Source: Pelagomonas calceolata (Eukaryota). Taken from it: a DNA stretch of 64,000 bases. Location: assembly GCA_918797485.1 (NCBI GenBank), contig CAKKNE010000006.1:620001-684000 (forward strand), in the 5' to 3' direction. Under the pieces are notes generated by a model. The model ran no database searches, had not been told where the DNA came from, and saw nothing but the letters and a program-made list of their open reading frames with translations. Positions 5,787 to 59,300 of this stretch are shown here, one piece after another (within the stretch, counting starts at the first letter, position 1; every line of letters begins with the position of its first letter). The position numbers and the translations under genes are program-made.

Positions 5787-6216
5787 GTAACTCTATGTAA
5801 TGTACATGTGCGTCTAACATATGCGTAGATAGAATGCGTAGAATATATGCGACTCACAGGTGAGGTCTGTACGGCGCGCGGCGACCCCGGGTTTTTTAGC
5901 AGGGTACCTCGGGCCCAATCGTCGTGGGGGGACGCCCGAAGCCTAAAGCCGTCGAGTTACCTCGCCAGAAGTCCCCGGCCGTCGGCACCGGTTGCTAAAA
6001 AACAAATCGGGCAGCATCCAAAAACCTGCCCACCCGCCGGCGCGCGGCGCGAGCGTCTACGGGCGCCACCGGCTGCCCATCGAACTCCACGACAGTCTCC
6101 GGCGCCCACGCAGCCCTCCGCTCTTTGCCGCGCGAGACCGCTGCCCATTTTTAGCTGCCCTCAGGACAGGCGCGCCTCTACGCCGCCGCTGCGCCGCGCC
6201 ACGCGCCGAGCCAATC

Positions 6217-31418: not shown

Positions 31419-34400
31419 ATGGCCAAGCTCCCGGCCATCCGCACGGAAGGCGCCTCGCCCTTCGCGCGCCGGTCCAGGATGCCCGCCGGCTCCTTCGACG
31501 AGCTCCTGGCACCCCAACGATCCATCAGCGAACAACCCGTTCGGAAATCCCTGCGGAGGCCCGCCGGCCTGCGGAAACCGCTCCGAGACAAGGACCAGGC
31601 CGTCGCCAAGGCCTCGGAGCAGCTCCAGAACAATAGGCAACGTAGAAAGGAATACAAAAAATTGCACTCCGGTAGTATGCGGGATGAAAAAGCGTGTGTG
31701 GTGAAGTCCTTATCATTGACGGGTGGCACGGACGGCTTGGACGCCATGGCTGCTGGTTGTTTACTCCCTCAATTAGCTGCGACGCCCCAATGTTTTAGGT
31801 ATCTACAAACCTTGAATATGAGTGGCACGCGCATCAATGCCCAAGGCGTCAAGTCGTTGGCTACGTTTTTGTCGTCTGGCGAGGACTGCCACGTCAAGAG
31901 TTTGCGACTGGATAAGTGCGGGGTCTCCGACGCGTCGTCGGCACTATTGTTCCGAGGTGTAGAGCGAGCTCGTTGTTTGAAAGTCCTATCAATAGCGAAG
32001 AATAGGGTGGGCCCCAAAGGTTCAGTAGCGTTAGCTAAATCTATACGGAGTACGCATCTCAAGGAAGTTTCGTTGTCGGGCAACGCGCTACACGGCCTCT
32101 CGCTGGGCTTTCTTTGTGAAGCGTTAGCCTACACCACAACCATACACAGACTAGACTTGTCCTGGAACTTACTAGGGAAATGCACGGACGAGCAGGATTA
32201 CGGGCGAGGCGGCGACGCCCCTCCAGCCATACGAGCTTTGGCGCTGATGCTCGCGACCAATAGGCATCTACGAGCGTTGAATCTCGCGAATTGTTCCCTA
32301 GATTTAACAGCTATCGAAACCATCAGTGAAGGTCTCCGAGAGAACACGTCGCTCATCTCCCTGAAAATCAACGACGGAAATTGTGGGAAACTCGACGCGA
32401 AAATGTCCGTGACTCAGTGTCTGTTTCTGACGTTTTCTGAACTTCAAGTTCGCGTCGATGGCGTCAACGCGACGTCACGCCACCGCGACGCCGTCGACGC
32501 GGCCGCCAGAGAGTCGACGCGCCTCGCGAGACGGTATCACTCGACGCAGGTTCCTCGAGGCCGACGCGCCGTTGCAACTCGGCGAGAAGAAGCAGGTCGA
32601 CCGGGGCCATCGGTGGTCTGAACCTGGTTATAGAGAAGTAGAGTTCATGTTCTCGCCGTCGAGCTGCGCGCAATTTGACCCGTCGCGACCCTTGTATTTG
32701 CACTTGGAATGCGACCATTGGCAGGCCGACCAGCTGGACCTCATGGAGCCCTTTGGCTTTGTAAGGTTCAGGGTGCTGCCGCCGGGGAAGCAGTACTACT
32801 TTTTTTCCCAAGGCGATCAAGTGCTCATTGCAGATGACCATGCGTCAGAGATCCATCCTAAAGTTCATTCTCGTCGGAATTACGTGGAGACCACACCTGG
32901 TCATTTACTCAAATCGATACATGATTTAGATCATGCCAGACCGAGGGATCGGGACTGGGCTGACCTCGAGCAGACGCCGTGGCTCGTCGGCAAGTGTCCT
33001 TCGTGGTCCATGCAGCACGCCTTCGTCGGGCGGCACCGGCAACTGTCGGATGCCGAGAAGGGGGACCTGAAGAAGACGAAGGCTGATCCGAGGTTGTTTG
33101 CTGTTGTGCCTCCGGAGCGGTTCGGCAAGACGAGTCAGCAGGCCTGCGTGTTCGATCCTGACAGTGTTTTTAGGGACTACGAGTTGTTCGATTCTCCTGG
33201 ACGTAATCATGCGGCGTCGTACGAGGACTGGTGTGACATGAAGTTGACTCGACTAAGATTGGTACCGGAGAGCGACGAAAAGACGGCCTTGGATGGTTTA
33301 CGATCACACTACGTTCTACTAGCATCATTGTTCCAGCACTTGCGATGTGTGGAATACCCGAACCATCGCACGGAACTCAAGGATCATGTGGACCTCCCGA
33401 CGATGCTTAAGCTACTTACTCGTACTGGATTGGTCGTACCCTCTACGAGAGTGCAGACGCCCCACGTCTCGCCCGGCGGCGCGAAGGCCTACAAGGGCAA
33501 GGTCAAGAAGCGCAATGCGCGCAAGAAGTCCCTCGGTTGCGAGCACTCGTCCGAACCGATAGATACCAAATCTTTGCGGGAACTGTTCTACATCGTAAAT
33601 GTGTCCTTCGAGGAGCACATGGCCGACCCCGACGAGAAGGAGTTACTTGATAGAGGGGAGTTTGTGGAACTACTCTGTAGACTAGCTTTGCTGAGATATG
33701 CGGATCCGGCCGAGCCTGATGGGTTAGAATTACCTCGAGCATTAGATTTATTGATAGAGAACCACGTCGGCCCCTACGTCGACCACCTCGCTCAATCAAG
33801 TTCATTGACACCATCCACAATAGGTAGAAATGACGGCTTTCGAGTCAAATTCTTTTATACGCCTCAGACCGATGCTGTATTGACGAAGTACGAAATGCAC
33901 CTGAGACGCATCTTCCGCGACTACGCCTGCGGCCAGCACGCCAAAGATCCGTTTGGAGCTGCCGAGAAGAAACGGCTCGCTCAGTTGCACAAGAAACCGA
34001 AGAGGCCGGAGCTCGACATCTTCGGCGCCGACTCAGCGCAGAAAATGAACTTGAACCTGACGTGGTCGCGGCGATGGCGTCGACGCGGTGCCGCAGCGCC
34101 TCGACGCCGTCGATGCGGCCGTCAGAGAGTCCACGCGCCTCGCGAGCGTGCCGCGGTCGTGTCGCGACGGTGTCGTTCCCACACAGGCCAAGAAGTCGAG
34201 GAGGACGAAGTTATTTGTCAAGTGCCGAAGATCCAGTTCGCTGATTTACTTGAATTAGTAGTGCGGACCGGAGCTTTGGATGTCGACTATCTGCGGCCCA
34301 AAAAACAACCACCGTCTGACGGTCTTGGGAGAGGTCGAGTGACGGAATATGAAGTGTTGCAAGACGCGATCAAGTCCGAACTCCTGTCCATCGACGACAA

Positions 34401-35355
34401 GGGCGCTGGAGCACAAAATGCGTCCCTAGATTTTGGGGAGTTTCTGGAGTTCGTGTGTCGACACGTCTGGCGCTTGCATGTGTTGGAGGGTGCTTCCCAT
34501 GACGCAGGGCTGGCCCACTACCATTCTAGATTGGACCACTGGATCGAGGCGTTGTGTGGCATCCTCTATTTCGAGGACTCCCATGCGGAGCTGCGGGCGA
34601 GGTATGTCAGAGGGGCTTTACCACCCACGCCGCAAGAATCATCAAGGCCGCAACCGCAGCTCCTGGCCCAGGCCTCCGCTATTAATGTAGCAGCCAAATT
34701 AGCCTCGAAGATGCGCGGCCGCAAGTCGAGCATCGACTCGTGGGCCTTTGCGCCGCCTGCGGACGAGTATGACGAGGAAGAGGAGGAGGAGGTTGAGCCG
34801 GAGCCGGAGCCCGCCAAGCCCCCGCGGAAGGCCGCGAAGAGACAGACGAAGAAGAAGCACGCCTACCAGACGAACCCCTACGCGTTACCCGCCGGGCCGC
34901 TCCGGAAGACGCGCAAGGAGAAACCGAGACGCAAGCACAAGGACGGTCCCGCGACCTTCGAGGGCTTCTTCGTCGAAGGTGGGGAGGACCTGCCTCCTCA
35001 CTCTCCCATAAGAACGCCGAATCGACCGTCCCTCGACGGGCTGCCTGCTGCTTCTGATCCTAGAACTCCTGGTGGAGGCTTGAAGGAGGAGTACCTCGAC
35101 GACGAGGAAGAAGATGATGAAGAGGAGTACGAGGAGGAGTACACTCAACCGCTCACGGCCGCGGCCGACCCCCGGACGCCTGGGGGCGGTCTCAAGACCC
35201 TGAGCGAAGAGGAGTTCGAGGACGAGGAAGACATGGAGGAGGAGCTGTCCCTGACGCCGGCGAAGCCCATCACGGCGGCGGCGGACCCGCGGACGCCCGG
35301 GGGCGGGCTACGAAGTGCCGAGGAGTCCTACGAGGAGTCCTACGAGGAAGACTAA
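31419..35355 (+). CDS. Large LRR (RNI-like) protein with EF-hand-like motifs and acidic tail; introns 32405-32549 and probably 34025-34186
   Basis: LxxLxLxxN repeats; LDRGEFVELLCRLA, LDFGEFLEFVCR; three DPRTPGGGL repeats. Confidence 0.75.
32405..32549 (+). mobile_element. Repeat-family intron (family B), 145 nt
   Basis: GTCCGTGACTC...GACGCAG joins two ORFs (AKM/FLE). Confidence 0.75.
34025..34186 (+). mobile_element. Repeat-family intron (family B), in-frame GC-AG, 162 nt
   Basis: Homologous to 22880 and 32405 introns; ends CCCACACAG; translates as an anomalous Arg-rich insert. Confidence 0.65.
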
Positions 35356-37615
35356 GTATCATGTGACTGACTCACTTACGCGGGGCTCCTGAGAAAAGCG
35401 TTGCGTCGATGGCGTTGGCAGCTGCGTGGGCGTAGGGGCCATCGGCACGCTGACGCATGGCGTCGCTTGCAACAAAGTACTAGTAGTCCGCACCGTGTGA
35501 AAGGGGGCGGACGCCAAAGTGAGAAATTACCGTAGGTTTTCTCCCTGAATAGCTTGAACCCGGAAACTTGCTACGAACATACTTAAGGTAATGACTAATA
35601 TTCACGCAAAACAGGGGCTGCAAACGGTGGGGGGCTTTGGGGTGCGCCGGCCGCGGGCAGGCCGCGGGCCGGACGGCGGAGACTCAAAGTTCCAAATCGA
35701 CGTCGTCGTCGTCCGCATCGTCGTCGTCCTCCGGTTCCACGGGCTGGGCCATCGTCCTCTCGGCCTCCTCGTCGCCGGGAAGGTCGAATTCGTCCTCCGG
35801 CGGGTCGTACTCGAGCAGCACGTCGAGGAGCTGTTCGTCCTCTGCCGCGATGACCATGGCGGGAAGATCATACACACAATAGGTCTGGGTGTCCTTCTTG
35901 TCGTAGGACCTGATTTCAGCGCAGATCTGCGGCGGATCAGTGTCGTCGACCCACTTCATTCCGACGATCTCGCCGGCGAACCGGTACTCGTCGTCGCGAA
36001 CACAGAGCCCAACCCACTTCTCTCCTAGCACTTTCCCGCCGTCCTTCTGGTAGCGGGCGGCCTCCTCGTGGTTCTCCAGCTCCGCTCGGACCACGCGAGC
36101 CCCATCGTCCTCCTTTGCCTTCGGCCGGCCGCGCTTGGCCTTAGTAGTACTACTACTTCGGATCGCCTCCTTCCGCATCGTGATGCCGTCGCCGCCCTTG
36201 TACTTCTTCAGAATAGTGGAGAGCGGCGGCGGCTCCTCCGCGTCCACCTCGGCGATCCTCACCAGACCTCGCGAAGCCGCGACGGCGGTCTGGACGGCGA
36301 CGCGGCGCCACGGCGCCTCGTCTTTCTCTAAATCCAGCACCGCCGTCCCCGAGCCGCCTTCTCGATGAGCTGCGCGCAGGAGTTGCGCCTCGGGCGATGG
36401 CTTGCCGCCAGCGACGAGCGCGGACTTGAAGAGCGTGCCCGCGAGGCCCGCGAGGTTCGCGAACATCCGGCACGTGTTCTTGTCCTTCTGGAGCAGCTCG
36501 AGCGTCAGTAATTGAAGCCGTCCGGCGGTTACAATAGCAAAGGTAACCACGACGATGCCGTCCACGTTTGCTGGTAGCGACGTGTCGATGAAGTCCCACG
36601 CCATCGCCTTGATCGACTTGTACGGCACGACGTATTTTTCCTTCCCCAGGACGTCGAGCTCCAGGACGCCCTTGAGATTGCTCTGGCGGCACTTGATCGT
36701 CGGCGTGCCCACTTTTTGTATGGCGGCGTGCGGCTTTGAGTGGACGAGCTCCCACGCCGCGTCGCCGTCCACGATGAAGGCCCGCGCGACCGGGAACGCC
36801 TGCCCGTTGCCCGAAGCCCCTTCGCGCTTCAATAAGTGCGGCGCCGCCATCGCCATCTCGAGAATGCTGCGGCCCTTGGACGCCTTGCGCCCGTACTTGG
36901 CGCGCACCCACGCGTCGCGGAACGTCAGCTTAAAGTTTTTGACCGTGACGTTCGTCGCCGCCGCGATTTTTGTCAAAATCTTCGGCGCCTCGCCGACCCG
37001 TGCGCGCCTCGCGACGCCGTGGTCCTTGTCCCGCTCAGTTTGTGTCTTCAGCACAAACGCACGCTCTTCCGTCTCCTCGAAGTCCGCGAGCGCGGCCCTA
37101 CGACTCTCCGGGCTCTCGTCGATCGTGTTCCGGTAGGTGCCAACGCCGCGGTTGAAGGTCCAGGACCGTGCCCGGTCCTGCAGGATCGACGCGGCCAGCA
37201 GGATCTTGCCCAGGTGACGCGCGACCTTAGAAATTCTAAGGTGCTTGTCGACGCCCCGCAGGATCGAGTGCATGGTCTCGTTCGACGCTGAGAACGGCAG
37301 CGTCGACCGGAGCTCGTCCGTCATCTTGTTCTTCTTCATCAGCGCGAGGATGCCGGTCATGGCCTCCTCGTTCATCAAATACAGCTCGTAGAGGACCTCC
37401 GAGATGAACCCTCGGTACCGTTGCGCGCCGCGCGCTCTCTGGTCGATGTTCTCCTCGCACTCCTTGTGCCATGCACGCAGCTCCGCGTTGAAGGCCCGCA
37501 GATTCCTAAGATTCTCCTCGAACGTAACTTTGTCGCCCTTCGCGTCGACGCCACGCGCGACGCGCTCGGACTTCGCGATCAGATCGCACAGCCACGCCGC
37601 GCCGTCGAGCCCGAC

Positions 37616-37688
37616 CTGTGTGCGCATAACGTTCGACGCCATCCCCACGAAGACTCGATCCCCGCGAATCGCGGACGCGGGACGGTGC
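37616..37688 (-). other. GC-AG intron (73 nt) in transposase
   Basis: GAG|GCACCG...GCACACAG|GTC; contains GATGGCGT core. Confidence 0.65.
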
Positions 37689-39070
37689 CTCGCGAAACAG
37701 GTCGCCCATCTTCCCGCAGAGGTGGGCCGGCTTCGAGGCCATGCTATCTTTTGGATCCACTACTTCCATCGTGGCGAGATCAGCGAATTCCTGGTGGAAC
37801 TCTTTGGCGCGCTGCTCCCCGAGCTTATCGGTGAGCGACACGTCGTCGACGCGCGAGTAGGTAGGGTCGCCCGGCTCCGAGAGCGTCACCTCGCCGTTCT
37901 CGGTCGGAACAATGCCGCGCAGCCGCGTCAGGAGGATGTCGAAGCGAATCTGTTGGCCCTTGGCCAAAATCCAGTCGCCCCAAAAATCTCGTTTCAGGCC
38001 CTTCGTGTCGTGCTGGTCCATGTCGGACCCCGACCAGAACGGCAGCTCCTCGGCCTTTTTCACATTCTCGAACAGCGGCGTCTTGTCGCCGGAAGATTTC
38101 CCTTTGATTATTTTCCACGCGTCACGATTCGGCGACGCGCCGTCGCCGCCCGCGAAGATCAGCCACGAGCCCTTCTCAAAACACAGGCGGCGCAGCTCCA
38201 AAAAAACGTTTGCGATGATCTTGCCCGTCTCCTCATTAAGAGGCACGACTCCGAGGCAAATCTCACAATTTACGTTCTTGCCGTTGAGCGCGTGGAGCAT
38301 GACCGTCATAAGCTTCTTCGCAATGTCCTTGCCGCCCAGGGCTTTATCATCGTCGAAGTCGTCCTTCCCACGGGCCGCGCCCTTAAGCCCGTCCGGCGAC
38401 GCGGTGCCGAGCACGACGTATTCGCCGTCGATGTCCCTCACGACCTCCAGGCGCGACTCGCCGTGGACACAGTCGAAGGTCACGCCCAGCGCGAGACCCT
38501 CGGGGCCGCCGAGCGTTTCTAGAGCTGCGTCGACCATCGACGCCGAGACGCTGACTATCTCCTTGAGCGGGAACGGCGTCGCTGCATATCTTCGGAGATG
38601 ACGCGGGGTTGGAACGCCCGGCAGATTCTGCAGCATCCCATCAAAAAACTCGGGCACGCCGGGCAGAAACCGCTTCGCGCCTTTGGCAATAGCACCGCCG
38701 CGGAGCAGGTCGATGGCCGACGTGCCCACGACGGTCCAGTAGACGATCCAGAAGCGCAGCACGTCTTCACCCTCCGGGTTGCCGTGCCAGGCGTGCCGTC
38801 CGTACTCGAAGATGTTGTTCATGATCAGCACGTGCCGGAAAATAGTCATCAGGACGTTGTAGACGAACGTCCCGGGCTTGCAATAAGGTCTCATCCTATC
38901 GAAGAGCTCCGTGAGCAGGTCCTTCTTCTCCGGCGTCGCGGTCGACGTATCAGTCGAGACGCGCGCGCGCTTACTGCCGGGCTGCACCGGAATCGCGGTG
39001 TCGTCCTCGTGAGTGCCCGTCACCTTCAGGATGGTGTGGAGGAAGTCTCTCTTATCGAAACCTGTCTGAC

Positions 39071-39124
39071 CTACGTGAGCACAACCGGTTAGATCAAGTT
39101 ATTGATTTTCACACAGGTACTGAC
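39071..39124 (-). mobile_element. Degenerate introner intron in transposase gene
   Basis: GTCAGTAC + CTGTGTGAAAATCAA ... CACGTAG | GTCAGACA. Confidence 0.65.
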
Positions 39125-40327
39125 AACCATTCGAGGGCAAGAGGTCCTTGACATGTGTCCTGGCGATCTCATACATGTGATCCTCGCAAACCCAGGTCTG
39201 CTTTTTCGTGCCATAGACGCAGTGGGGGTCGAACGTCAGCGTCCCTTTATTGTTGGAGCGCGTCCCATCGTTCACCATCCGCTCTAGCTGCGTGATAGTG
39301 GCCTCACAAAAAACCTTGTTCGGGCATCGCTTGCCCGAGATGCAGCAGCAGCACGACTTCTCTTTTGGAGGAGGAGGCAGCTGCGTCGTAGGCGTCGCCT
39401 TCTTCCTCTTCTTCTTGGGCGCGCCGCCCCGAAGCCGTAGTCTCATGTACGCTACGACCACGGGTGCGGCAACGACTTCATCATCGCTATACTTCCGTCC
39501 CTTGGCTGGGTAAATGAGCTCGACGTCAGCATCAGCAGCGACCCCGAGGCGGTCGAGTACTTGCCTAGCAGTAAGACCGTGCCGCACGAACTCGTCCGGT
39601 CGAAGGCATTTCTTCCCTTGCACGAAGAACTTAACCCTGATGCCCCGGTCCGGGTCCGATAAAGGCAGCGCGGCAGCGCCCACAGGGGCGGCAGCGGCTC
39701 GGTACACAAACGTAGGAACATTTGAGCTAACGCAGAAGGCGGAGCCCAGCACGAACACGACGAGAAGAAAGATGGGGGGCCCATACACAAAAACAGAGGT
39801 GAAGAGATTGACGAATAAATCCAAGAGAGATGGTACAAATACTGTACGGCTGCCGCCGGAATAAGCACTGCCGCTGCACCCGGCTGTAGCCGCAGCACAA
39901 CTACGAAGGTGAAATAGGTAGTAGAACTGCATTTTGGCTGCCCGCGGCCTCGCGGCCGCGCGCGCGAGCCCGCTCTCCGGCGGCACAGACCCGCACGGTA
40001 GCCTCTAGTTAGGGCTCTCGTTTACACAGACCGACCTCTCCGTAAGCCCCCCTGAGCTCAGCCGGCCCTTAAGAGGGCCCTACGAGTCCCCCCGACCGAT
40101 CCGCCTCCTTCGGGCGCTCGGTGGAGCGAATCCCTATGGTGGCGTCCGGCCCCGTCCGTGTGACTGGCAACGCCACTGGCAAGTGCAACGCGCGAGGCCT
40201 AGATGCACGCCATCGCCGCGACTCGCTAACACCACGAGCACGCCGTCGCCGCGACTCGCCAATGTATACGCACTCCTTACGCGCCCCCCCTACACGCCCT
40301 CCTTGTTCCGGCGCTCCATGAGTGATT

Positions 40328-40996
40328 TCATGCTTGGGTCGGCAACATTTTGAGGTCCGCCCCGGACTTGCGCCCGTGCTCCGCCAGGAGGTCACTCAGA
40401 CGCTTGAGGTAGTCGTGCTTCGTGTACTCGCCGTAGTCCTGGTTGCCGGTCCCCTTCGACACCCTGTAGCCAGTAGGGGCGTACGGCGACCAGCGCGGGA
40501 TGCCGTAGCCATAATCCCGCATCTTCTGCGCATTTAATAAAGGCTTGCCGATGACGGGTGTCACGGGTCGCGACGAACCAGCCGACGCCGGCCGTCTCGT
40601 AATATTCACGGCCTCCTTCATCTGGTCCCGCTTCGTCCGCCGCATCGCCGAGGCGGATTTGGGTCTATTGCGGAACTCCGGCGCTTTGAAACCGGTCGAT
40701 GACTGGGCGCCTCTCCTTCTTCCATCGTTCTGGGCGGCTCGTCTCGCGTACGGATCGCATCCCGCAGGTGTGGCGGAGCGGTACCTCCCGGATCGACGAC
40801 TGTAGCGTTTCTCGTTTCTGTATAATCGCTCCGACGCAGACATGGCCTCGCGCGGCGTACATTGTCTACTACCAGGACGAAATGTCGCGGCATGCGCACT
40901 CGGCCCGCTCGTCCAGAACTCGTCGGGGTGGCCCTGCCAGTGCGTCTTCCTAAGCTGCCCGCTCCACTTGCTCTGGCCCCACTCCGGGTGGTACAT
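40328..40996 (-). CDS. Basic protein of unknown function
   Basis: 222-aa ATG ORF with RPKSA/RPASA motifs. Confidence 0.6.
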   Translation of the reverse strand: MYHPEWGQSKWSGQLRKTHWQGHPDEFWTSGPSAHAATFRPGSRQCTPREAMSASERLYRNEKRYSRRSGRYRSATPAGCDPYARRAAQNDGRRRGAQSSTGFKAPEFRNRPKSASAMRRTKRDQMKEAVNITRRPASAGSSRPVTPVIGKPLLNAQKMRDYGYGIPRWSPYAPTGYRVSKGTGNQDYGEYTKHDYLKRLSDLLAEHGRKSGADLKMLPTQA

Positions 40997-41530
40997 TGTC
41001 TATCGCGGTGGCGCTTGCGGCCCGTGAGTGGTTGCTTGCTAGGGTGTGGAGCTGCCCGGCTGTTGCTCCCTCCAGTCCGCGCGGGCTGCCTCTCGTGTCC
41101 GCGTGCTGCTGCTGGCTGCTGCCGCTATGCGCACGTTGCCTGTCCTTACGGATGCGCCCCGCTCGGATGGCTCTCGCGCGTCGCGTCGATGGCGTTGTGG
41201 AGCCTCGCGCTGATCGCGACTCGCGCTAGGTGTGTTTCGCCAGCAGCTTTCTACGGCTCCATACGCATCGCTACCGGTGCCGCGGCGATGTTCGAGCTAG
41301 GTGATGTGCGCACTAGCTTTGTGATGCGGAGGAGAGGCAACCAAGGGCAAAGCTTGAGCACCAAGCGCTACGGCTTGCAGCCACACTCGCCAGGCTCGCA
41401 TTCCTTCGGCTCGAAACCGCTGCGACAGTTTTGTCAGTCGTACGCAACCGCTGCGCGACATACGGCCGCACAGCAGTAGAGCAGCGGCTGCAAGCGCCGT
41501 GCGACGCGAAATCGACGCAGCGCGAGCGCT

Positions 41531-49430: not shown

Positions 49431-49597
49431 AAATGATGAGTTTTTCTGCGTCGTGAGTGAGCTAATCCGACGAATGGCACCAATACGTCAGAGGCAGCTG
49501 CGCTGCGCCTGGCCCAGGCGCAGGTCGGCCCTGAAACTGGGGGGCATTTAAACGCTGCCCCACGCACCAACGACAGCACGCGAATTGCTAGGAATCG

Positions 49598-51238
49598 ATG
49601 AGCGGCCGCTCCCAGGCCCGCAAGAGCCAGCGCGAACTGCAAAACGTCTTTACGGCTGGTCGCGGAGGCGCTGACCAGCGGTTACCTGCCGCGCCTCGTT
49701 CGATCGCTTTGCCAGCGCCGCCGCCAGCGCCGGAAGGACTACCGATGGCGGAGCGCGTCGTCGGCGGCACTGCGAATGCGCCGGCGCCACAAGCAACGAC
49801 TTCGGAAGACGTCGCGGTGCCGGGCGCTGGGTGGGCGAACGGCGCGCGCCAAGTGCAGAGCACATTAGATGGCGGGACGGTGGGGGACAATCCGGAGTGC
49901 TCGTGCAAGTGTCTTCCGGCGCGTCTGGATAGGAAGAACGTCAAGTTAGGGTGCATGCACATCACGCCGTTGAAGACTGTCGACTGCCCCAAGTGCAACA
50001 ACTCGAGAAGCAAGAAAGCGCACTCGATTGGCTGCGACAAAAGCGAATATTTTGGCCTGACGCACGGTGAGATCGCCTCGAAGAAGGGGGGCAAGGACCC
50101 GTTCAAGGGTAAGATAACGAAGAAGGACGCCAAGGGTACGGCTCCTCTGTCCTTCTTCAAGAAGCCTCCCAATCCTCCGACGGCTCCCGTCGCACCGCCC
50201 GCGGAACCGCCGGCACCCGCTGCACCGGCGCCGGCGCCTGGAATGCTCAATAGACTTAAGGCGGCGGCCGTCGCTCTCGTGCGGCCGTCCAGCACTAAGC
50301 GTGACGCGTCGACGGCGATCGGAGATGACACCGTGGGCGAAGAGGACACCGCTGACAGGCCACGGCCTTCGTTAGCAGAAGAGACTGCCAGTTTGGAGGC
50401 CGAGGACGACGCCACGCCGCGGTTGATTCCAGAGCTCGAAAAAATCATTCATACTACTATAGAAAAGTGTCCACGCGTCCGCTACGACGACAAAGAGCGT
50501 CATTTCACCGTCTTCAAGTATTCAGGAAGTTTGAGCGCCGATGAACAACGCGAATGTTTCGCACCTGGCGACTTTAGGGTGGTTTTTCACGAGACCATCG
50601 ATACCGGCGCCGGGACGCGGCCCAGCTACATAAAACACGCGCTACGTGGTGTTGAGGTCATATTTCTGCGTCCGGACCTTAATCGGTACGGCGACGAAGA
50701 GGTGGCAGATTCCTTGCGTTGCTTTGGGTGCCGGGGGCGGCTACAGTTCTCTCGGTGGACTTATTCTAAGCGTAAGACGTGCAAGATGATCCTGACGACA
50801 GGTCGTCCACACTTCCTCGTCGAGGGGTCCTACCAGTGCACTGAATGCAAACAGATCTATGGAGCGTCGCAATATGAGATGCGGGTGATGCAGCCGCCGC
50901 GAATTCAGAGCGACCTGCCGGTCGACACGGCGTCCACTGTTTGTCTTCTGGTACATCGAGTCGATCGCGACACAGTGGACGCGGCTCCTGCGCCGGCTCC
51001 GTCTAAGTCAGGCGACGAGAAGAAGAAGAAGAAACTAGCGGCCGTTCGGAAGTACACGGGCTGCCCGAAGTGCGACTGTGGGAAGGTCGACGAAGTAGAA
51101 GAGGAGAACAAGCGCCGCGCTAACAAGGTTCCTCCGATGGGCGGGCTTCGCGGGAAGACCGTGTGGTGCAAGGACGACTGCACGCAGTGGAAGTGGATTG
51201 TCCAGCAGGGTTACCGGGAACCACGGTCTACAACGTGA
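49598..51238 (+). CDS. Cys-rich protein, possibly transposon-derived
   Basis: Cys clusters CPKC..HSIGC, CFGC..L..W..YQCTEC..PPRIQSDLP, CPKCDC..C...C; basic KKKKK tract. Confidence 0.5.
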   Translation: MSGRSQARKSQRELQNVFTAGRGGADQRLPAAPRSIALPAPPPAPEGLPMAERVVGGTANAPAPQATTSEDVAVPGAGWANGARQVQSTLDGGTVGDNPECSCKCLPARLDRKNVKLGCMHITPLKTVDCPKCNNSRSKKAHSIGCDKSEYFGLTHGEIASKKGGKDPFKGKITKKDAKGTAPLSFFKKPPNPPTAPVAPPAEPPAPAAPAPAPGMLNRLKAAAVALVRPSSTKRDASTAIGDDTVGEEDTADRPRPSLAEETASLEAEDDATPRLIPELEKIIHTTIEKCPRVRYDDKERHFTVFKYSGSLSADEQRECFAPGDFRVVFHETIDTGAGTRPSYIKHALRGVEVIFLRPDLNRYGDEEVADSLRCFGCRGRLQFSRWTYSKRKTCKMILTTGRPHFLVEGSYQCTECKQIYGASQYEMRVMQPPRIQSDLPVDTASTVCLLVHRVDRDTVDAAPAPAPSKSGDEKKKKKLAAVRKYTGCPKCDCGKVDEVEEENKRRANKVPPMGGLRGKTVWCKDDCTQWKWIVQQGYREPRSTT

Positions 51239-52228: not shown

Positions 52229-53857
52229 TTACGGCCCCATGAACCCCCCGACCTCCGCCACCAATAAAGCGTGGTCGAAGGGCCACTGCGCCGTCGGCAT
52301 GAGCATCTCGATCGTGTCCCCCGACTTCAAAGAAGGGAACTGCTCGACGCCTCGTACCAAAGGCTCCATCTTCTCGCCGGCCTCGTCGGCCCGCCAGGCC
52401 ACGACGAAGTCCTTCAACGAAACGTCTAGAACGCCCGCTTTCTTCACTTGGGTCTGCAAGCGCGACCTTCTTTTCGCGACGGTCCGAGCCGCGGGATCCG
52501 AGGCCTCCTCGGCCATGATGCCACAACTTTCGAGAGCCGCCGAGAAGGCGTCACTATCACTGGTATTGGAGTCCATGCCCAGGACAAAGGCAGCCTTGTC
52601 CGAGAAATGCGTCGAGAGGGCCCTCGCGAGGGCCGGGACGAAGGCGTTGCCCACTTCCGAAGCGCCCTTGCCATGCACGGCGCACAAAGCTACGGGCACC
52701 GGTCCGGAGCGAGGTGTGGACCGCAGTCGGAACGAACCCGCTCTACGAGTCATTCTGTCGACGGCCGCCCAGCGCTTCGGTAACAATGAGGCCGACTCCG
52801 AGACCTCCGTCCGTAAGCGTCTTGCTTGGACGACGCAGGTCCTTTGGAGCGTCGTCTCCCAGTCCTTCAGGAGCTTAGGGTCATCTCCGTACAGCTTTCT
52901 ACCTTCCGCCTCCAGTGTGAGATACCAGGCGGGCTTCTCCTCCTGATCTTGGATGGTCTGGAAGGCGTCCCGCCTTGCTAGTACCGCTGTTTCTCCACTC
53001 GAGTTGATGGCGTATTTGTCCGCGAACATCGAGTACATCCGATCTGTTAAAGCAGATTTACCACCGCGAGAAATCTCCACGAGGTCATACGCCTCCTGCA
53101 GACAGACGACCTCCGGGAATTGCAACTCAGCTAACAGCTCCACGAGCTTCGTGTACTTGCCCACTTCTGTCGTGAAGTGCAGCCGATCGTGGAACGACAG
53201 GTGTTCGCGCATGATATCTCCACACGATTCAGATGAAGGATACATCCTCCTGAGCGCTTCAAAACACATCGCATCGAAGATTAACAACCCTGCAACAGCA
53301 TCACCTAATGATACTGCATACTTTTTCGCTCGTTTCGCCCAGGCCGCCCAGTCCTGGTCCGACGTGGAGTGCAACCAGCGCAGCCAGGCGCCGAAGAATT
53401 GTTGGACAGAATCGTCCTCGACGTTGGCCTCGAACTTGAGGAGATTTTCTGGCATTTCGAGGGGCGCCGGTCGCCCCACCCGCAGCGACGCCAAATTGCA
53501 GGCGTTGAAGAGCATGGGGCAGTCGCGCGTGACCCTCTCCAAAGCTTGCTCCCACGTCGCATCATTTAACAGGGAAGTAACAACACTTTCCGTGCTTCGC
53601 GGCTCGGACGCCATCTGGGCATACGCCGCGTCGACGGCTCGCTCCAGCCCTTGGCAGGAAGCCGGCCCCGCCTCGGCCAAGCAAGCATTCGCCTTCGCAA
53701 AGCGCTGGCCCCACTGCTCGCCCAGCTCTGTTAAATCTCCTCGCATCTCGAACTCGAATGAATTGGTATTGCGGCCGCCCACGTTTAACGTGCAGACCGT
53801 GAAGACGGGGGACTCGAGTTCCGGGCGGCCGTCGTCGGACTTGGCCTCGGCGTCCAT
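52229..53857 (-). CDS. Exonuclease/endonuclease/phosphatase (EEP) family protein
   Basis: TLNVG, VCLQE, AVH, LGMDSN, LKDFV, WPFDHA. Confidence 0.8.
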   Translation of the reverse strand: MDAEAKSDDGRPELESPVFTVCTLNVGGRNTNSFEFEMRGDLTELGEQWGQRFAKANACLAEAGPASCQGLERAVDAAYAQMASEPRSTESVVTSLLNDATWEQALERVTRDCPMLFNACNLASLRVGRPAPLEMPENLLKFEANVEDDSVQQFFGAWLRWLHSTSDQDWAAWAKRAKKYAVSLGDAVAGLLIFDAMCFEALRRMYPSSESCGDIMREHLSFHDRLHFTTEVGKYTKLVELLAELQFPEVVCLQEAYDLVEISRGGKSALTDRMYSMFADKYAINSSGETAVLARRDAFQTIQDQEEKPAWYLTLEAEGRKLYGDDPKLLKDWETTLQRTCVVQARRLRTEVSESASLLPKRWAAVDRMTRRAGSFRLRSTPRSGPVPVALCAVHGKGASEVGNAFVPALARALSTHFSDKAAFVLGMDSNTSDSDAFSAALESCGIMAEEASDPAARTVAKRRSRLQTQVKKAGVLDVSLKDFVVAWRADEAGEKMEPLVRGVEQFPSLKSGDTIEMLMPTAQWPFDHALLVAEVGGFMGP

Positions 53858-54294
53858 GGCTGGTGTGTGGGGCTGTTTAGGGGCTGCCCGGGCTCTGCCG
53901 GGGCGCGCGTGTGTCCACGGCCGCGTCGACGGCGTGTGGGCTGGGTCTTAAGCGTCCGCGCCGCCAATCCGGTGGCGCAGCGGGGGTCGCGGCACGCTCC
54001 GCTCTTGCACAGCGGCCAGAGCCGGGCGGCGTCGCGGGTGCCTCTCTCTTCAAGCCGTCCAAGCGTGCGTCGACGTCTCCGGGGCCCCGGCGAGCGATGG
54101 CGAGGCCCTTACTTGGAAAAGGCTCAATAAGCTCTCGGGGCAGCGGATGGGCAGCGCTAAAAAGGGCTGCCCTCGAACGCCAGCCGCCACGCGCCATTTG
54201 CAACTCAGACACGCATTTCTGAGAGCCTCACGTTAGCTTTCCAGGGGCCCGCGACGAAGGACGCGCGCCGGCACGCTGCCTGCCAAGCAGCACC

Positions 54295-55955: not shown

Positions 55956-56389
55956 GGCGCTAGGTGCTCTGTGGCAGGGTGCGGGCGGGGCCGCGGGCGC
56001 TTTTTCGACGGGGGCAGCTTTGGATGGGGCTGCGGGCGACGGCTGGCGGTCGCGCGGGGCGCGGGGGCAGCGCGGCGACGCTTTTAGCGCGGCGCTCAAT
56101 GGGCTCTCACACGGCGCTGCATCTCTCTAGCTTTTTGAGTTCGCCTCATTGCTTGGTGGTCCGGCAGCCAAGTGTATCGCCTCGGCGAGGCCTGCGAAGC
56201 TTACAAGGGGGTTTCCTCGCAGGGTCGGGTTCGGGCAGCTTTTGGCAGGTGCGCCGCACGTTTGTATAGCGCGCTGCCTCGCCGGTTGCGCATCGATTAA
56301 CTCATTGCGTTGCGGCATCGGAACGAAGCACTCGGGCAGCCCCGAGCCATGGCACCACCCTAGCTGTGAGCAACTTAGCACTCACACAA

Positions 56390-59300
56390 ATGAAGCGGGC
56401 AGCGCCCTCAGCGCGCTTGTTCTTCGTCGACGAACCTGACGGCAGTCCCGTCGCGTCGACGCGACGACTGGCCGACCCGCCGTCGCCGCCGCCGCGCCAG
56501 TCGGTCGCGCGAGACCGAGGCCGGGCGACCGCTGCGGCGCCGACGGCGCCAGTCGATCGACGGCCGCTTTCGTCGGGTCCAGCTGCCAGTAGAAGTCCAC
56601 GTTCACACCTTCCGCCGGTGGTCGCGCCAATCGCGGTCGCGCCGGCACCGGCCCCGATTGGAGCCGCGGCGCCAGCACCAGCCCCAAAAACACTACCCGA
56701 GGCCGTGCCGGGCCTGCCGCCGACGGAGGCCGTGCCCGACCTCCCTCCCACAACTCTGGGCCGCTTCTCGCTGCTCCAGAAGCAGCTCCAAGCGCTAGAT
56801 GAGGCCGCGGCGAATGAAAAAGCACAACAAGCCTCGATCCAAAAGAAACTGCGCGAGGCTAGAAAGGAGCGGGACTTGAGATCCACAAAAGCCAAGTCGT
56901 ACCGGCGCGAAGCCGCGCTGGCCGCGATCGCCGCGAAGCGACTGGAGCTCGCGATGGCCGACGAGGCCTACGCAATCGCGGAACAAGCCAAAAAAGAAGC
57001 CCGTGTCAAACTGGAGGTCATGGACCGCGACACCGTCGTGGCTACGAAGGAGCAGTTCCGCGCGACGGCTGCCATCAGAGAAGCGGAACGGGCCAAAAAA
57101 CATGATGCTGCCTTGGCGTCAATTGCCGCGGAGACCGCGTCTGTCGCTTTGGAGAAACTGGCCGTCGAGCATGAGTTAGCTCAATTGCAACTGCAGAAGC
57201 GGGAAGCCGACCGGACCGCGTCGTTGTCCACGGCAGCATTACTCGAGCGGGAGCTCGGGGACGAGCTCCGAGAGGCGCTGGTGACGTCGGCGGGCTTGGC
57301 CGCGTTGCCCCCAGAATTTCCTGGAGACGACAAGGAAGCAGGTCTGGAGCTAGCCATGGCCTCGGTCCTGTCCTCGACGGATGTCACGCCGCGGGCGAAG
57401 ACCGCACCCGCATCAGAAGATCCGGAAACAGAGGCAGAGAACTGTATAGCATCCTTCGAGGACCGCGTCAGAGCGCTCGAGGCGGAAGCTGCCAAGTCGC
57501 TCGAGGAGGTCAAGTGGGCCGAGGGCGCCCTCAGTGGCCTGGAGGACATCGAAAAGGCCGGCGACGAGGCCCTCGACGCGGCAGCTTTGGCGCGGGCGCA
57601 GAAGCAAGATATGGAGAAGCTTGAAAGAAGGGAGGCCGAGACGTATGGCCACGGCGGCGTCGGCGAGTGGGATGATCAAAGGGGCGCGTTGATCAGGGTT
57701 GTGAGAGGTGTGGTGCTCGAGCTTGGACGGGAGTTCATCACCGAGTTGATTGGCGAGGTCGCGCATTCGATGCATGACGAATGCGACAAGGCCCGTTCAT
57801 TGATTGTTGACGCTGTGAAAGGTCTGGTGGATGGGCGTGATTTGAGGACGCTGGAACGGGCGCGCTCTGAGTTATTGATGAGGAATATGAATAATGAACG
57901 GGCCGTCCCGACAAGAGCCGCGCGACGGTTGGCATCCATTGAACCCACTCTATTATTCCTGCCGGGACTCGATGGTTGCATCCCAAAACCAAGCTTGAAG
58001 ACGGATACACCTTTACCTCCGAGGCCGCGCCTTTTAGAGTTAGGCGAGCCCGTCTCGACGATATGCTGTAGTCGAGGCGTCACGGTCACTGATGATGAGT
58101 CTTCAACAGTCTTAGTAGCGGTCGGCGGGCGGCGCGGCGGCGTCGCCATTGGTTCGGTGGCGCATCGGCCGAACCCACGCTATGTGGACGAGGACGACGC
58201 CGACGAGGTCGTCGCGTGCCTGCGAGACACGATCTATCCTACTACATCATCTCAAATCGTCGCCCTGGGTATCGGGAGAAGACGACGGCGGCTTTGTGCC
58301 GTCGACGCGAGCGGTCTGATCCGCGTGTGGCGGTTCGACCTCTCACCGACGCTCCAGGTCAAGAAAATGGAGCGAGAAACGCGCCTCGACGCGTGGACGC
58401 TCCAGGCACGGTGCCGGGACCTTCAAGCGCCGGTCTTCGTGCGCGTCGACGACGACGACGAGCTGTGCGAGGCTGGGTGGAAATCAAATTTCGGGCGCCC
58501 CACGCCATCGACGCGACGGTGTGTCCCTGACTCTGCTCGACGGCGTAGAGCTTCCACGCCATCGACGCGATGCCATAACCTCGCTCACTGGTCGATTTCC
58601 GCACAGGTTCGAAGGCGAGGACGCGTGGATCCGCCGCGACGACGCGCCTAGACTATTGGTCATGGACTCGCATGGTGTTGGTTGTAGGTGGCAGTGCCTG
58701 CCGGCGCCGCCCCTCCCACCTCAAAGGAAGGGCTGGTTCTGGCAGAAGAAACGTGTTGCCCCGGAGCCGAACGACCGCGGTGTCGTGTTAGAACTACTCC
58801 GAGGCGAGGGGGGAAGGCCGCTGTGCTGCTCGACGAATGTGTCCGTCGATAGCTACGGCCTTGTGAGTGTGTGGCCCGCCTTTTCTGAGGGTGATGCCGA
58901 CTGCTCGGTGCAAAGGCGAGTGTCAAGTGTGGAACCGGACGTCCTCGGCCGCGTCGTGACGGCGGCTCCTTCGTGTTCAGATAGAGACGCTTCAGTCCTA
59001 TACGATGAGGGGCCACGAGGGACGGCCCTCGCGCAGTGTCTTCGTGGCGACGCGGTGGCCCAGGCGGCACCAAATGTATATATGAGAGGTGGCGCTACGT
59101 ACTCGTCATCCGTACGGGACGGGGCGCTGGTAGCATTACGGGAACGGGTCGTCGAGCAGAATGACAGCGCGGAGGTCGTCGCTGCCGCGGCGACCGCGGA
59201 CGGCGTCGTCGTGCTGTGCCGAAGGTCAAAGCTGCTGACCGCGGCGGTCGTCGAGTGTAGTTCTACAGAAGCGCCGCGCGTCGACGCGAGTAGAAGTGTC

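Follow-up and report, generated by a model that had tools for sequence, protein, structure and literature searches.

A transcribed DNA transposon of predicted P-element type whose transposase bears a ubiquitin-tailed leader

P elements are controlled by splicing and by repressors. Deubiquitinases cleave after LRLRGG, ordinary LRLRGG fusions being cut fast and constitutively, and the ubiquitin inserts of pestiviruses are cut by host hydrolases. Ubiquitin fusions are frequent in algae (Ub-S27a, Ub-L40, Ub-NiSOD and Ub-actin) and polyubiquitin precursors are cleaved, as set out in passages of PMC6332867, while in cytopathic pestiviruses ubiquitin inserts at the NS2/NS3 junction increase enzyme release, as reported in excerpts of PMC13517609. 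Here we describe an element in a 64,000-nucleotide stretch of Pelagomonas calceolata DNA (contig CAKKNE010000006.1, positions 620,001 to 684,000; the whole stretch is called the window, and positions are counted from its first letter). The element is an intact, transcribed DNA transposon of predicted P-element type, and its transposase is encoded behind a leader that ends like ubiquitin. A ubiquitin-tailed leader on a transposase is apparently undescribed; if the leader is cut, proteolytic release from a ubiquitin-type leader would represent an added post-translational control step for a DNA transposon.

The element spans 35501-40155 (4655 base pairs, bp) and the transposase gene is its sole gene. 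A preliminary description of the locus, made from the letters alone, had proposed that three exons on the minus strand join through two short introns into one protein. The exons (39932-39125, 39070-37689 and 37615-35684) do encode 1373 amino acids (aa) with 0 internal stops, and RNA reads skip exactly the 54 nucleotides (nt) and 73 nt of the proposed introns. The parts of the gene are as follows.

39125-39932, minus strand: exon 1, aa 1-269, with the leader, ubiquitin-like domain, nuclear localization signal (NLS) and Cys finger; seen in translation, reads and contigs
39071-39124, minus strand: intron 1, 54 nt, GT-AG, bordered by a 5-nt direct repeat; 7, 0, 2 and 9 junction reads in runs X21-X24, and contigs X1 and X5
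37689-39070, minus strand: exon 2, aa 270-730, with the helical/helix-turn-helix (HTH) region, the RNase H strands carrying D469 and D579, DxxxH and the start of the insertion domain
37616-37688, minus strand: intron 2, 73 nt, GC-AG; 7, 3, 9 and 19 junction reads in runs X21-X24, and contigs of four of four runs
35684-37615, minus strand: exon 3, aa 731-1373 and the stop, with the rest of the insertion domain, E843, a PH-like domain, a C-terminal domain and an acidic tail

Junctions were counted in stranded polyadenylated (polyA) reads of one sample, about 6-12% of each run, and the reads over the gene in these runs (X21-X24) derive from the minus strand. Exon 1 is linked to exon 2, since spliced contigs of 4166 nt from X1 (the same sample) and 4130 nt from X5 (a different study) join all three exons, spanning 39967 and 39956, respectively, to about 35700, lacking both introns and showing 0 other letters. 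Contigs from X8 and X18 show the removal of intron 2 only. According to the contigs the transcript starts upstream of ATG 39932. The matching sequences came from one cultured organism and from seawater polyA metatranscriptomes. Intron 1 is not found in the relatives P0003, P0018 and P0174, nor intron 2 in P0001, P0002, P0007 and others, and both look like recent gains within the transposon; intron 2 bears a weak likeness to two host introns, which 10-14 of 200 shuffles also reach.

The gene and motifs were correctly recognized at the outset, while the terminal inverted repeats (TIRs), the 8-bp duplication and a hydrophobic segment in the leader had been overlooked. The element is bounded by the following features.

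35493-35500, plus strand: left copy of the 8-bp target-site duplication CCGTGTGA, an 8-mer that occurs just twice in the window
40156-40163, plus strand: right copy of CCGTGTGA, a perfect match to the left copy
35501-35516, plus strand: TIR at the 3' end of the gene, 16 bp, matching the other end at 14 of 16 positions
40140-40155, minus strand: TIR at the 5' end of the gene, 16 bp, directly inside CCGTGTGA
35582-35588, plus strand: subterminal 7-mer CTTAAGG, 82 bases from the left end
40067-40073, minus strand: the same 7-mer CTTAAGG, mirrored, 83 bases from the right end

When 64-kb windows were simulated, a TIR and duplication of such quality turned up anywhere in 0 of 15 in one series and in 4 of 200 in another, and the real window holds one further such pair (15/16), built of host palindromic repeats. 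TIRs and a target duplication of the 7-8 bp usual in the P superfamily are present on one copy. A candidate element end at 35515 was rejected, as it had no partner repeat. Related ends with different flanks occur in the X8 and X18 contigs (the X18 consensus comprises two contigs with an agreement of 0.68) and many reads match just the final 150 bases of the transcript, which shows that the element has further copies or derivatives. Its 3' end (35514-35730) also occurs in polyA transcripts that are more abundant, carry variant bases and differ in their upstream sequence; these are likely non-autonomous derivatives. The relative P0003 is missing the catalytic core, its 2735-bp contig being too short for a full gene; together with leader-only clusters (below) and the transcripts that share the 3' end, it provides the internally deleted relatives typical of the P superfamily.

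Other loci show related arrangements. A 918-bp element at L004:5857-6774 has perfect 17-bp TIRs and an 8-bp duplication, CCCAGTGG, and encloses an internally deleted piece of the transposase gene that is 92-98% identical; at 5967, ahead of the gene piece, it repeats the motif found at the 5' end of the window's element. Its TIRs differ from those of the window's element, and the 17-bp repeat is not found in the window at up to 3 mismatches. The right flank of L003 is exactly that of L004, with a longer gene piece inside. Within the 5' end of the window's element, the stretch 40042-40099 recurs in other expressed contigs, whose flanks are unrelated, and may be a dispersed promoter-like repeat.

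The motifs that the preliminary description named in exons 2 and 3 are all found in the spliced translation, and its assignment of a P-element-type DDE transposase is borne out by structure prediction, in which Drosophila P transposase is the best fold match of a homologue model. The modelled protein was P0002 (1199 aa, 41% identical over aa 194-1347), with an 83-row alignment, and its model has a mean predicted local distance difference test (pLDDT) value of 83.5. In Foldseek, two Drosophila P transposase structures were the sole matches under E 0.001 (6P5A, E 1.2e-8). In a wide fold search 6P5A was matched with a Z of 18.1 and a root mean square deviation of 5.2 over 410 aligned residues, compared to Z values of 8.2 for ISCth4, 7.7 for RAG1 and 7.2 for Hermes. 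The homologue model contains an RNase H DDE core with a P-type helical insertion domain, a domain that in the P superfamily binds GTP as a cofactor. The window's protein has the following features.

38472-38474, minus strand: D469, putative first catalytic residue, D in 21 of 23 aligned rows
38142-38144, minus strand: D579, putative second catalytic residue, D in 17 of 19 rows
38001-38024, minus strand: D619-x3-H623-x2-K626 signature, with D in 19 of 20, H in 20 of 20 and K in 20 of 21 rows
37277-37279, minus strand: E843, putative third catalytic residue, E in 22 of 28 rows
36425-36814, minus strand: PH/PTB-like domain, aa about 998-1127, mapped from residues 808-930 of the homologue model with Z up to 7.8, which is middling

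D469, D579 and E843 are taken as catalytic by their position, and they stand in the same order as the P transposase triad D230, D303 and E531 given in a section of PMC7776569. The D, D and E motifs first proposed are present, but the conserved signature is D619-x3-H623 and not DxxH, D621 being variable. The signature of the P superfamily is D(2)H, in the parts of PMC4168063 that define it; the D-x3-H that follows the second D here is one residue longer. Pfam returned no relevant match in the three exons, in 22 proteins or in 83 aligned family members, and PDB sequence searches with alignments A2, A4 and A5 and with the ubiquitin-sized domain alone returned nothing relevant. The A4 alignment consists of 83 rows picked for overlap, the 123-row A3 having had 53 of 122 rows misaligned. 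A profile search gave 247 clusters at E up to 0.001, the best 150 of the 247 being mostly fragments. The P-type family exposed here, which is unseen by Pfam, thus numbers at least 247 clusters of proteins (50% identity), many of them fragments. We consider it best filed as a divergent P-type lineage, which by its model would work like a P element, the D(2)H feature excepted.

The preliminary description also proposed a THAP finger, of which the following is found.

39180-39356, minus strand: THAP-like C2CH finger, non-canonical, aa 193-251, with a C..C..CxxH pattern across homologues

The C2CH pattern is thus present, but the P, W, F and P residues that complete the definition of THAP (PMC4168063, in part) are not conserved, and Pfam THAP matches 0 of 83 members. 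The fold lists contain no THAP entry, the first 93 residues of the model being barely tested there. THAP domains are restricted to animals according to part of PMC7776569, and the P-type family has a THAP-like finger outside animals.

Ahead of the finger lies the leader, followed by a basic run.

39723-39842, minus strand: hydrophobic segment, aa 31-70, which may serve as a membrane or signal anchor, 19-residue hydropathy 2.3
39423-39644, minus strand: ubiquitin-sized domain, aa 97-170, predicted beta-grasp, ending in LRLRGG (39423-39440)
39399-39419, minus strand: basic NLS-like run PKKKRKK, aa 172-178, a putative NLS by sequence

As originally noted, LRLRGG occupies aa 165-170 and is followed by APKKKRKK, a Cys cluster and VCEDH. 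We take PKKKRKK to be an NLS from its SV40-type motif. Searches with the leader, covering proteins of at least 147 aa, yielded 21 proteins, of which 18 are 147-471 aa in length and 3 are longer; each is a close relative with 63-97% identity over the matched part. With the window's protein this makes 22 leader-bearing sequences, 18 of which are in frame through the site. LxLxGG-A is kept in 18/18 of these (16 LRLRGG, 1 LRLQGG and 1 LGLRGG), upstream of three different Cys-finger types, such that all 18 have the C-terminal LxLxGG in frame with a partner that marks ubiquitin-like fusions. Among the 22, 5 stop soon after the site and 4 end or shift frame earlier. Clusters P0156, P0159, P0160, P0161 and P0163 are leader-only, with a stop a few residues after GG and the cut site kept. 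The hydrophobic segment of relatives has a 19-residue hydropathy of 2.35-2.71 in 10 of 10 scored, and both of its diverged versions retain this character. Mosaic leaders result, which combine either hydrophobic version with one of at least two versions of the domain and one of three types of finger.

The conservation of LRGG, which the preliminary description had named as a check, holds for close relatives, but distant homologues show no leader. Among 26 homologues that match up to the finger, LxLxGG is found upstream in 2, both close relatives. The other 24 have 0 LxLxGG, and in 13 of them the first Cys pair lies 7 residues or fewer from Met (four with one N-terminus), a missed upstream exon being possible. 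Judged by these sequences, the leader was acquired late, by a single clade, and is not family-wide. Where the window (37689-39068) and L001 differ by replacement changes, these are concentrated at aa 424-463 and 530-543; these clusters and the many combinations of leader variants suggest frequent recombination between copies.

What the leader does is best explained, in our view, by a pro-protein, and we think it fairly probable that host deubiquitinases cut the leader off after Gly170 and so free a transposase that begins with an NLS, in all likelihood as a constitutive step. In favour of this reading are the spliced full-length transcript, the TIRs and duplication that bracket the gene, the P transposase fold match, the conserved D, D, E triad, LxLxGG-A in 18 of 18 in-frame sequences, the Atlas fold matches of the ubiquitin-sized domain and the low pN/pS of aa 1-96 (both below), the hydrophobicity kept in two versions and the six out-of-frame ATGs ahead of Met163. 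The leader would be translated from ATG 39932, and its hydrophobic segment would hold it on a membrane with the ubiquitin-like domain toward the cytosol. Cleavage after Gly170 would likely be fast and constitutive, as for ordinary ubiquitin fusions. The freed transposase would start at Ala171 with its likely NLS and enter the nucleus, leaving the hydrophobic leader behind, and would bind the element ends through the THAP-like finger and HTH region. Transposition would then proceed by cut-and-paste with an 8-bp stagger. In effect the cut would restore the ancestral state, a transposase starting near its zinc finger. A bolder extension, possible though doubtful, is that the protein is a membrane-tethered pro-enzyme behind a ubiquitin mimic, that host deubiquitinase activity times nuclear entry and that the release cassette may recur on unrelated protist proteins. 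The copy is intact, and the marine organism that transcribes it is in culture, which makes cleavage, localisation and transposition directly testable.

The ubiquitin-sized domain is probably ubiquitin-like by fold, as judged from one predicted model: the size, the tail and a low-confidence beta-grasp prediction agree with the ubiquitin-like domain first proposed, but sequence homology outside the tail does not. Ubiquitin (a cluster at 0.84, a lead only) was the sole named feature match of an Atlas model, and a single-sequence AlphaFold model of the leader was uninformative (pLDDT 39). Several results weigh against the pro-protein reading. The Atlas model (P0003, residues 55-135), which resembles ThiS, SAMP2 and the ubiquilin ubiquitin domain at template modelling (TM) scores of 0.60-0.67, is of low confidence (whole-protein pLDDT 0.42) and its matches were 'under the bar'. 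Outside the tail, neither Pfam (PF00240) nor PDB sequence searches matched the domain to ubiquitin, and the hhalign probability against nine viral ubiquitin bodies is 0.1%. With the tail removed, six variants compared pairwise to 16 viral ubiquitins (3 of 19 loci were dropped for a stop or lack of a Met) gave a mean z of 1.4-3.3, and this test placed the ubiquitin-sized segment 103rd when about 1300 windows along the protein were ranked. As 39 of 78 positions are invariant in the six variants, the invariance of the tail alone is weak evidence. Compared to L001, the domain body is without purifying selection (ratio of replacement to synonymous changes per site, pN/pS, 1.59, p 0.44); leader aa 1-96 do speak for the reading, with a pN/pS of 0.28 (10 synonymous and 8 replacement changes), but their p of 0.012 comes from one of eight regions tested in one pair. 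The fold test of the transposase was made on the homologue P0002 rather than on the window's own protein. Translation, membrane binding and topology, and cleavage are each steps that we infer; if the hydrophobic segment led into the lumen of the endoplasmic reticulum, the site would be out of reach of cytosolic enzymes.

Cleavage could instead be gated. Uncut pro-transposase would be parked on the membrane until a specific, condition-dependent host protease frees it, so that the state of the host controls transposition. Retention of the hydrophobic segment in two diverged versions and an NLS placed directly after the cut site would suit such control, and a ubiquitin-like body too diverged for ordinary ubiquitin could narrow the range of accepting enzymes. 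However, this body drifts freely, which fits recognition of the tail only better than a specific partner, and the quick, constitutive cutting of ordinary LRLRGG fusions also speaks against regulation. We regard such a gate as unlikely.

Somewhat less probable still is a leader with no role, a captured and decayed piece of a host gene that is translated but uncut, or is bypassed via Met163. Its limitation to one close clade, the neutral look of the domain body and the in-frame Met163 just ahead of the tail are all compatible with a passenger. Yet all 18 in-frame variants, with three types of finger among them, retain the frame and LxLxGG-A, synonymous changes are in excess in aa 1-96, and a ribosome reaching Met163 on transcripts that begin upstream of ATG 39932 would pass six out-of-frame ATGs before this next in-frame Met.

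The leader might also limit the element itself, by sending most of the transposase to a secretory or plastid-import pathway or to degradation, which would lower activity and make the GG tail a relic. The hydrophobic segment does end in an AxA-F-like motif, followed by an acid-free stretch rich in Ala, Ser and Pro, and this resembles algal bipartite targeting signals. The end of the hydrophobic core near aa 70 is, however, far for a cleavable signal peptide, and the retained NLS and GG would be needless, making this explanation very improbable. Scarcely credible is a member of another DxxH-type superfamily (Kolobok, hAT or MuDR) or a domesticated host gene, for although DxxxH departs from the P signature, the ends are 5'-A(A/C)GG where P elements have CA, and hAT duplications are 8 bp as well, among the fold matches only P transposase stands out (Hermes and ISCth4 following at the Z values above), the duplication is CCGTGTGA and not the TTAA of Kolobok, and TIRs, duplication and deletion derivatives speak against domestication. 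A Kolobok reading from two TTAA sites was likewise rejected, as the TTAA lies in the internal subterminal CTTAAGG motifs.

The element has host genes as its neighbours: a plus-strand LRR gene, whose end lies at 35355, a Brix gene and, at 40283-41158, a small gene that is expressed. The small gene lies on the minus strand just outside the element, and its open reading frame (40328-40999, 223 aa) has no Pfam match. In the LRR gene, introns 32405-32549 and 34025-34186 have a common 81-nt palindromic repeat, 84% alike, and the second is GC-AG. Such GC-AG introns and palindromic repeats would suit a pelagophyte-like alga. Open frames at 49592-51238, 52229-53947 and 56270-58651 (548-793 aa) have no significant Pfam match.

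In comparison with known systems, the transposase resembles Drosophila P transposase (6P5A/6PE2), THAP9 and Galileo in its fold over the HTH, split RNase H and helical insertion regions and in its D, D, E triad. With the P superfamily, the window's protein shares an N-terminal C2CH-type finger, and the element shares the 8-bp duplication, the TIRs, the subterminal inverted motif and internally deleted relatives (described in portions of PMC7776569 and PMC4168063). It differs from P in its 13% identity, the lack of a Pfam match, DxxxH in place of D(2)H, a finger without P/W/F/P, imperfect TIRs of 16 bp that begin with A(A/C)GG, additional domains (PH-like and C-terminal) and the hydrophobic and ubiquitin-like leader; the word 'ubiquitin' occurs 0 times in PMC7776569. 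Like Kolobok, the element encodes a DDE transposase of the C/DxxH group, but the TTAA duplication and 5'-RR...YY-3' ends that PMC9587614 gives, in part, as Kolobok rules are not seen at its ends, which lack 5'-RR, and it has no second element-encoded gene.

As in ubiquitin fusion precursors, an N-terminal ubiquitin-type module with an LRLRGG end stands in frame with its partner. Unlike algal ubiquitin fusions, in which ubiquitin is recognisable, the window's domain is undetectable by sequence, lies behind a hydrophobic segment and is attached to a transposase. Tables 1-2 of PMC6332867 contain no transposase partner and 'transpos' has 0 occurrences in the text available from it, and the accessible portion of PMC6431247 mentions OTU domains in Helentrons and no such fusion. 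No transposase with a ubiquitin-like leader was found in the literature searched, Repbase and subscription journals being outside its scope. By analogy, the nearest functional parallel would be the ubiquitin-like inserts of pestiviruses, in which a selfish genome likewise carries a host ubiquitin-like sequence upstream of its enzyme; there it is a near-intact ubiquitin in the polyprotein of an RNA virus, whereas here it is a highly diverged domain in a DNA transposon.

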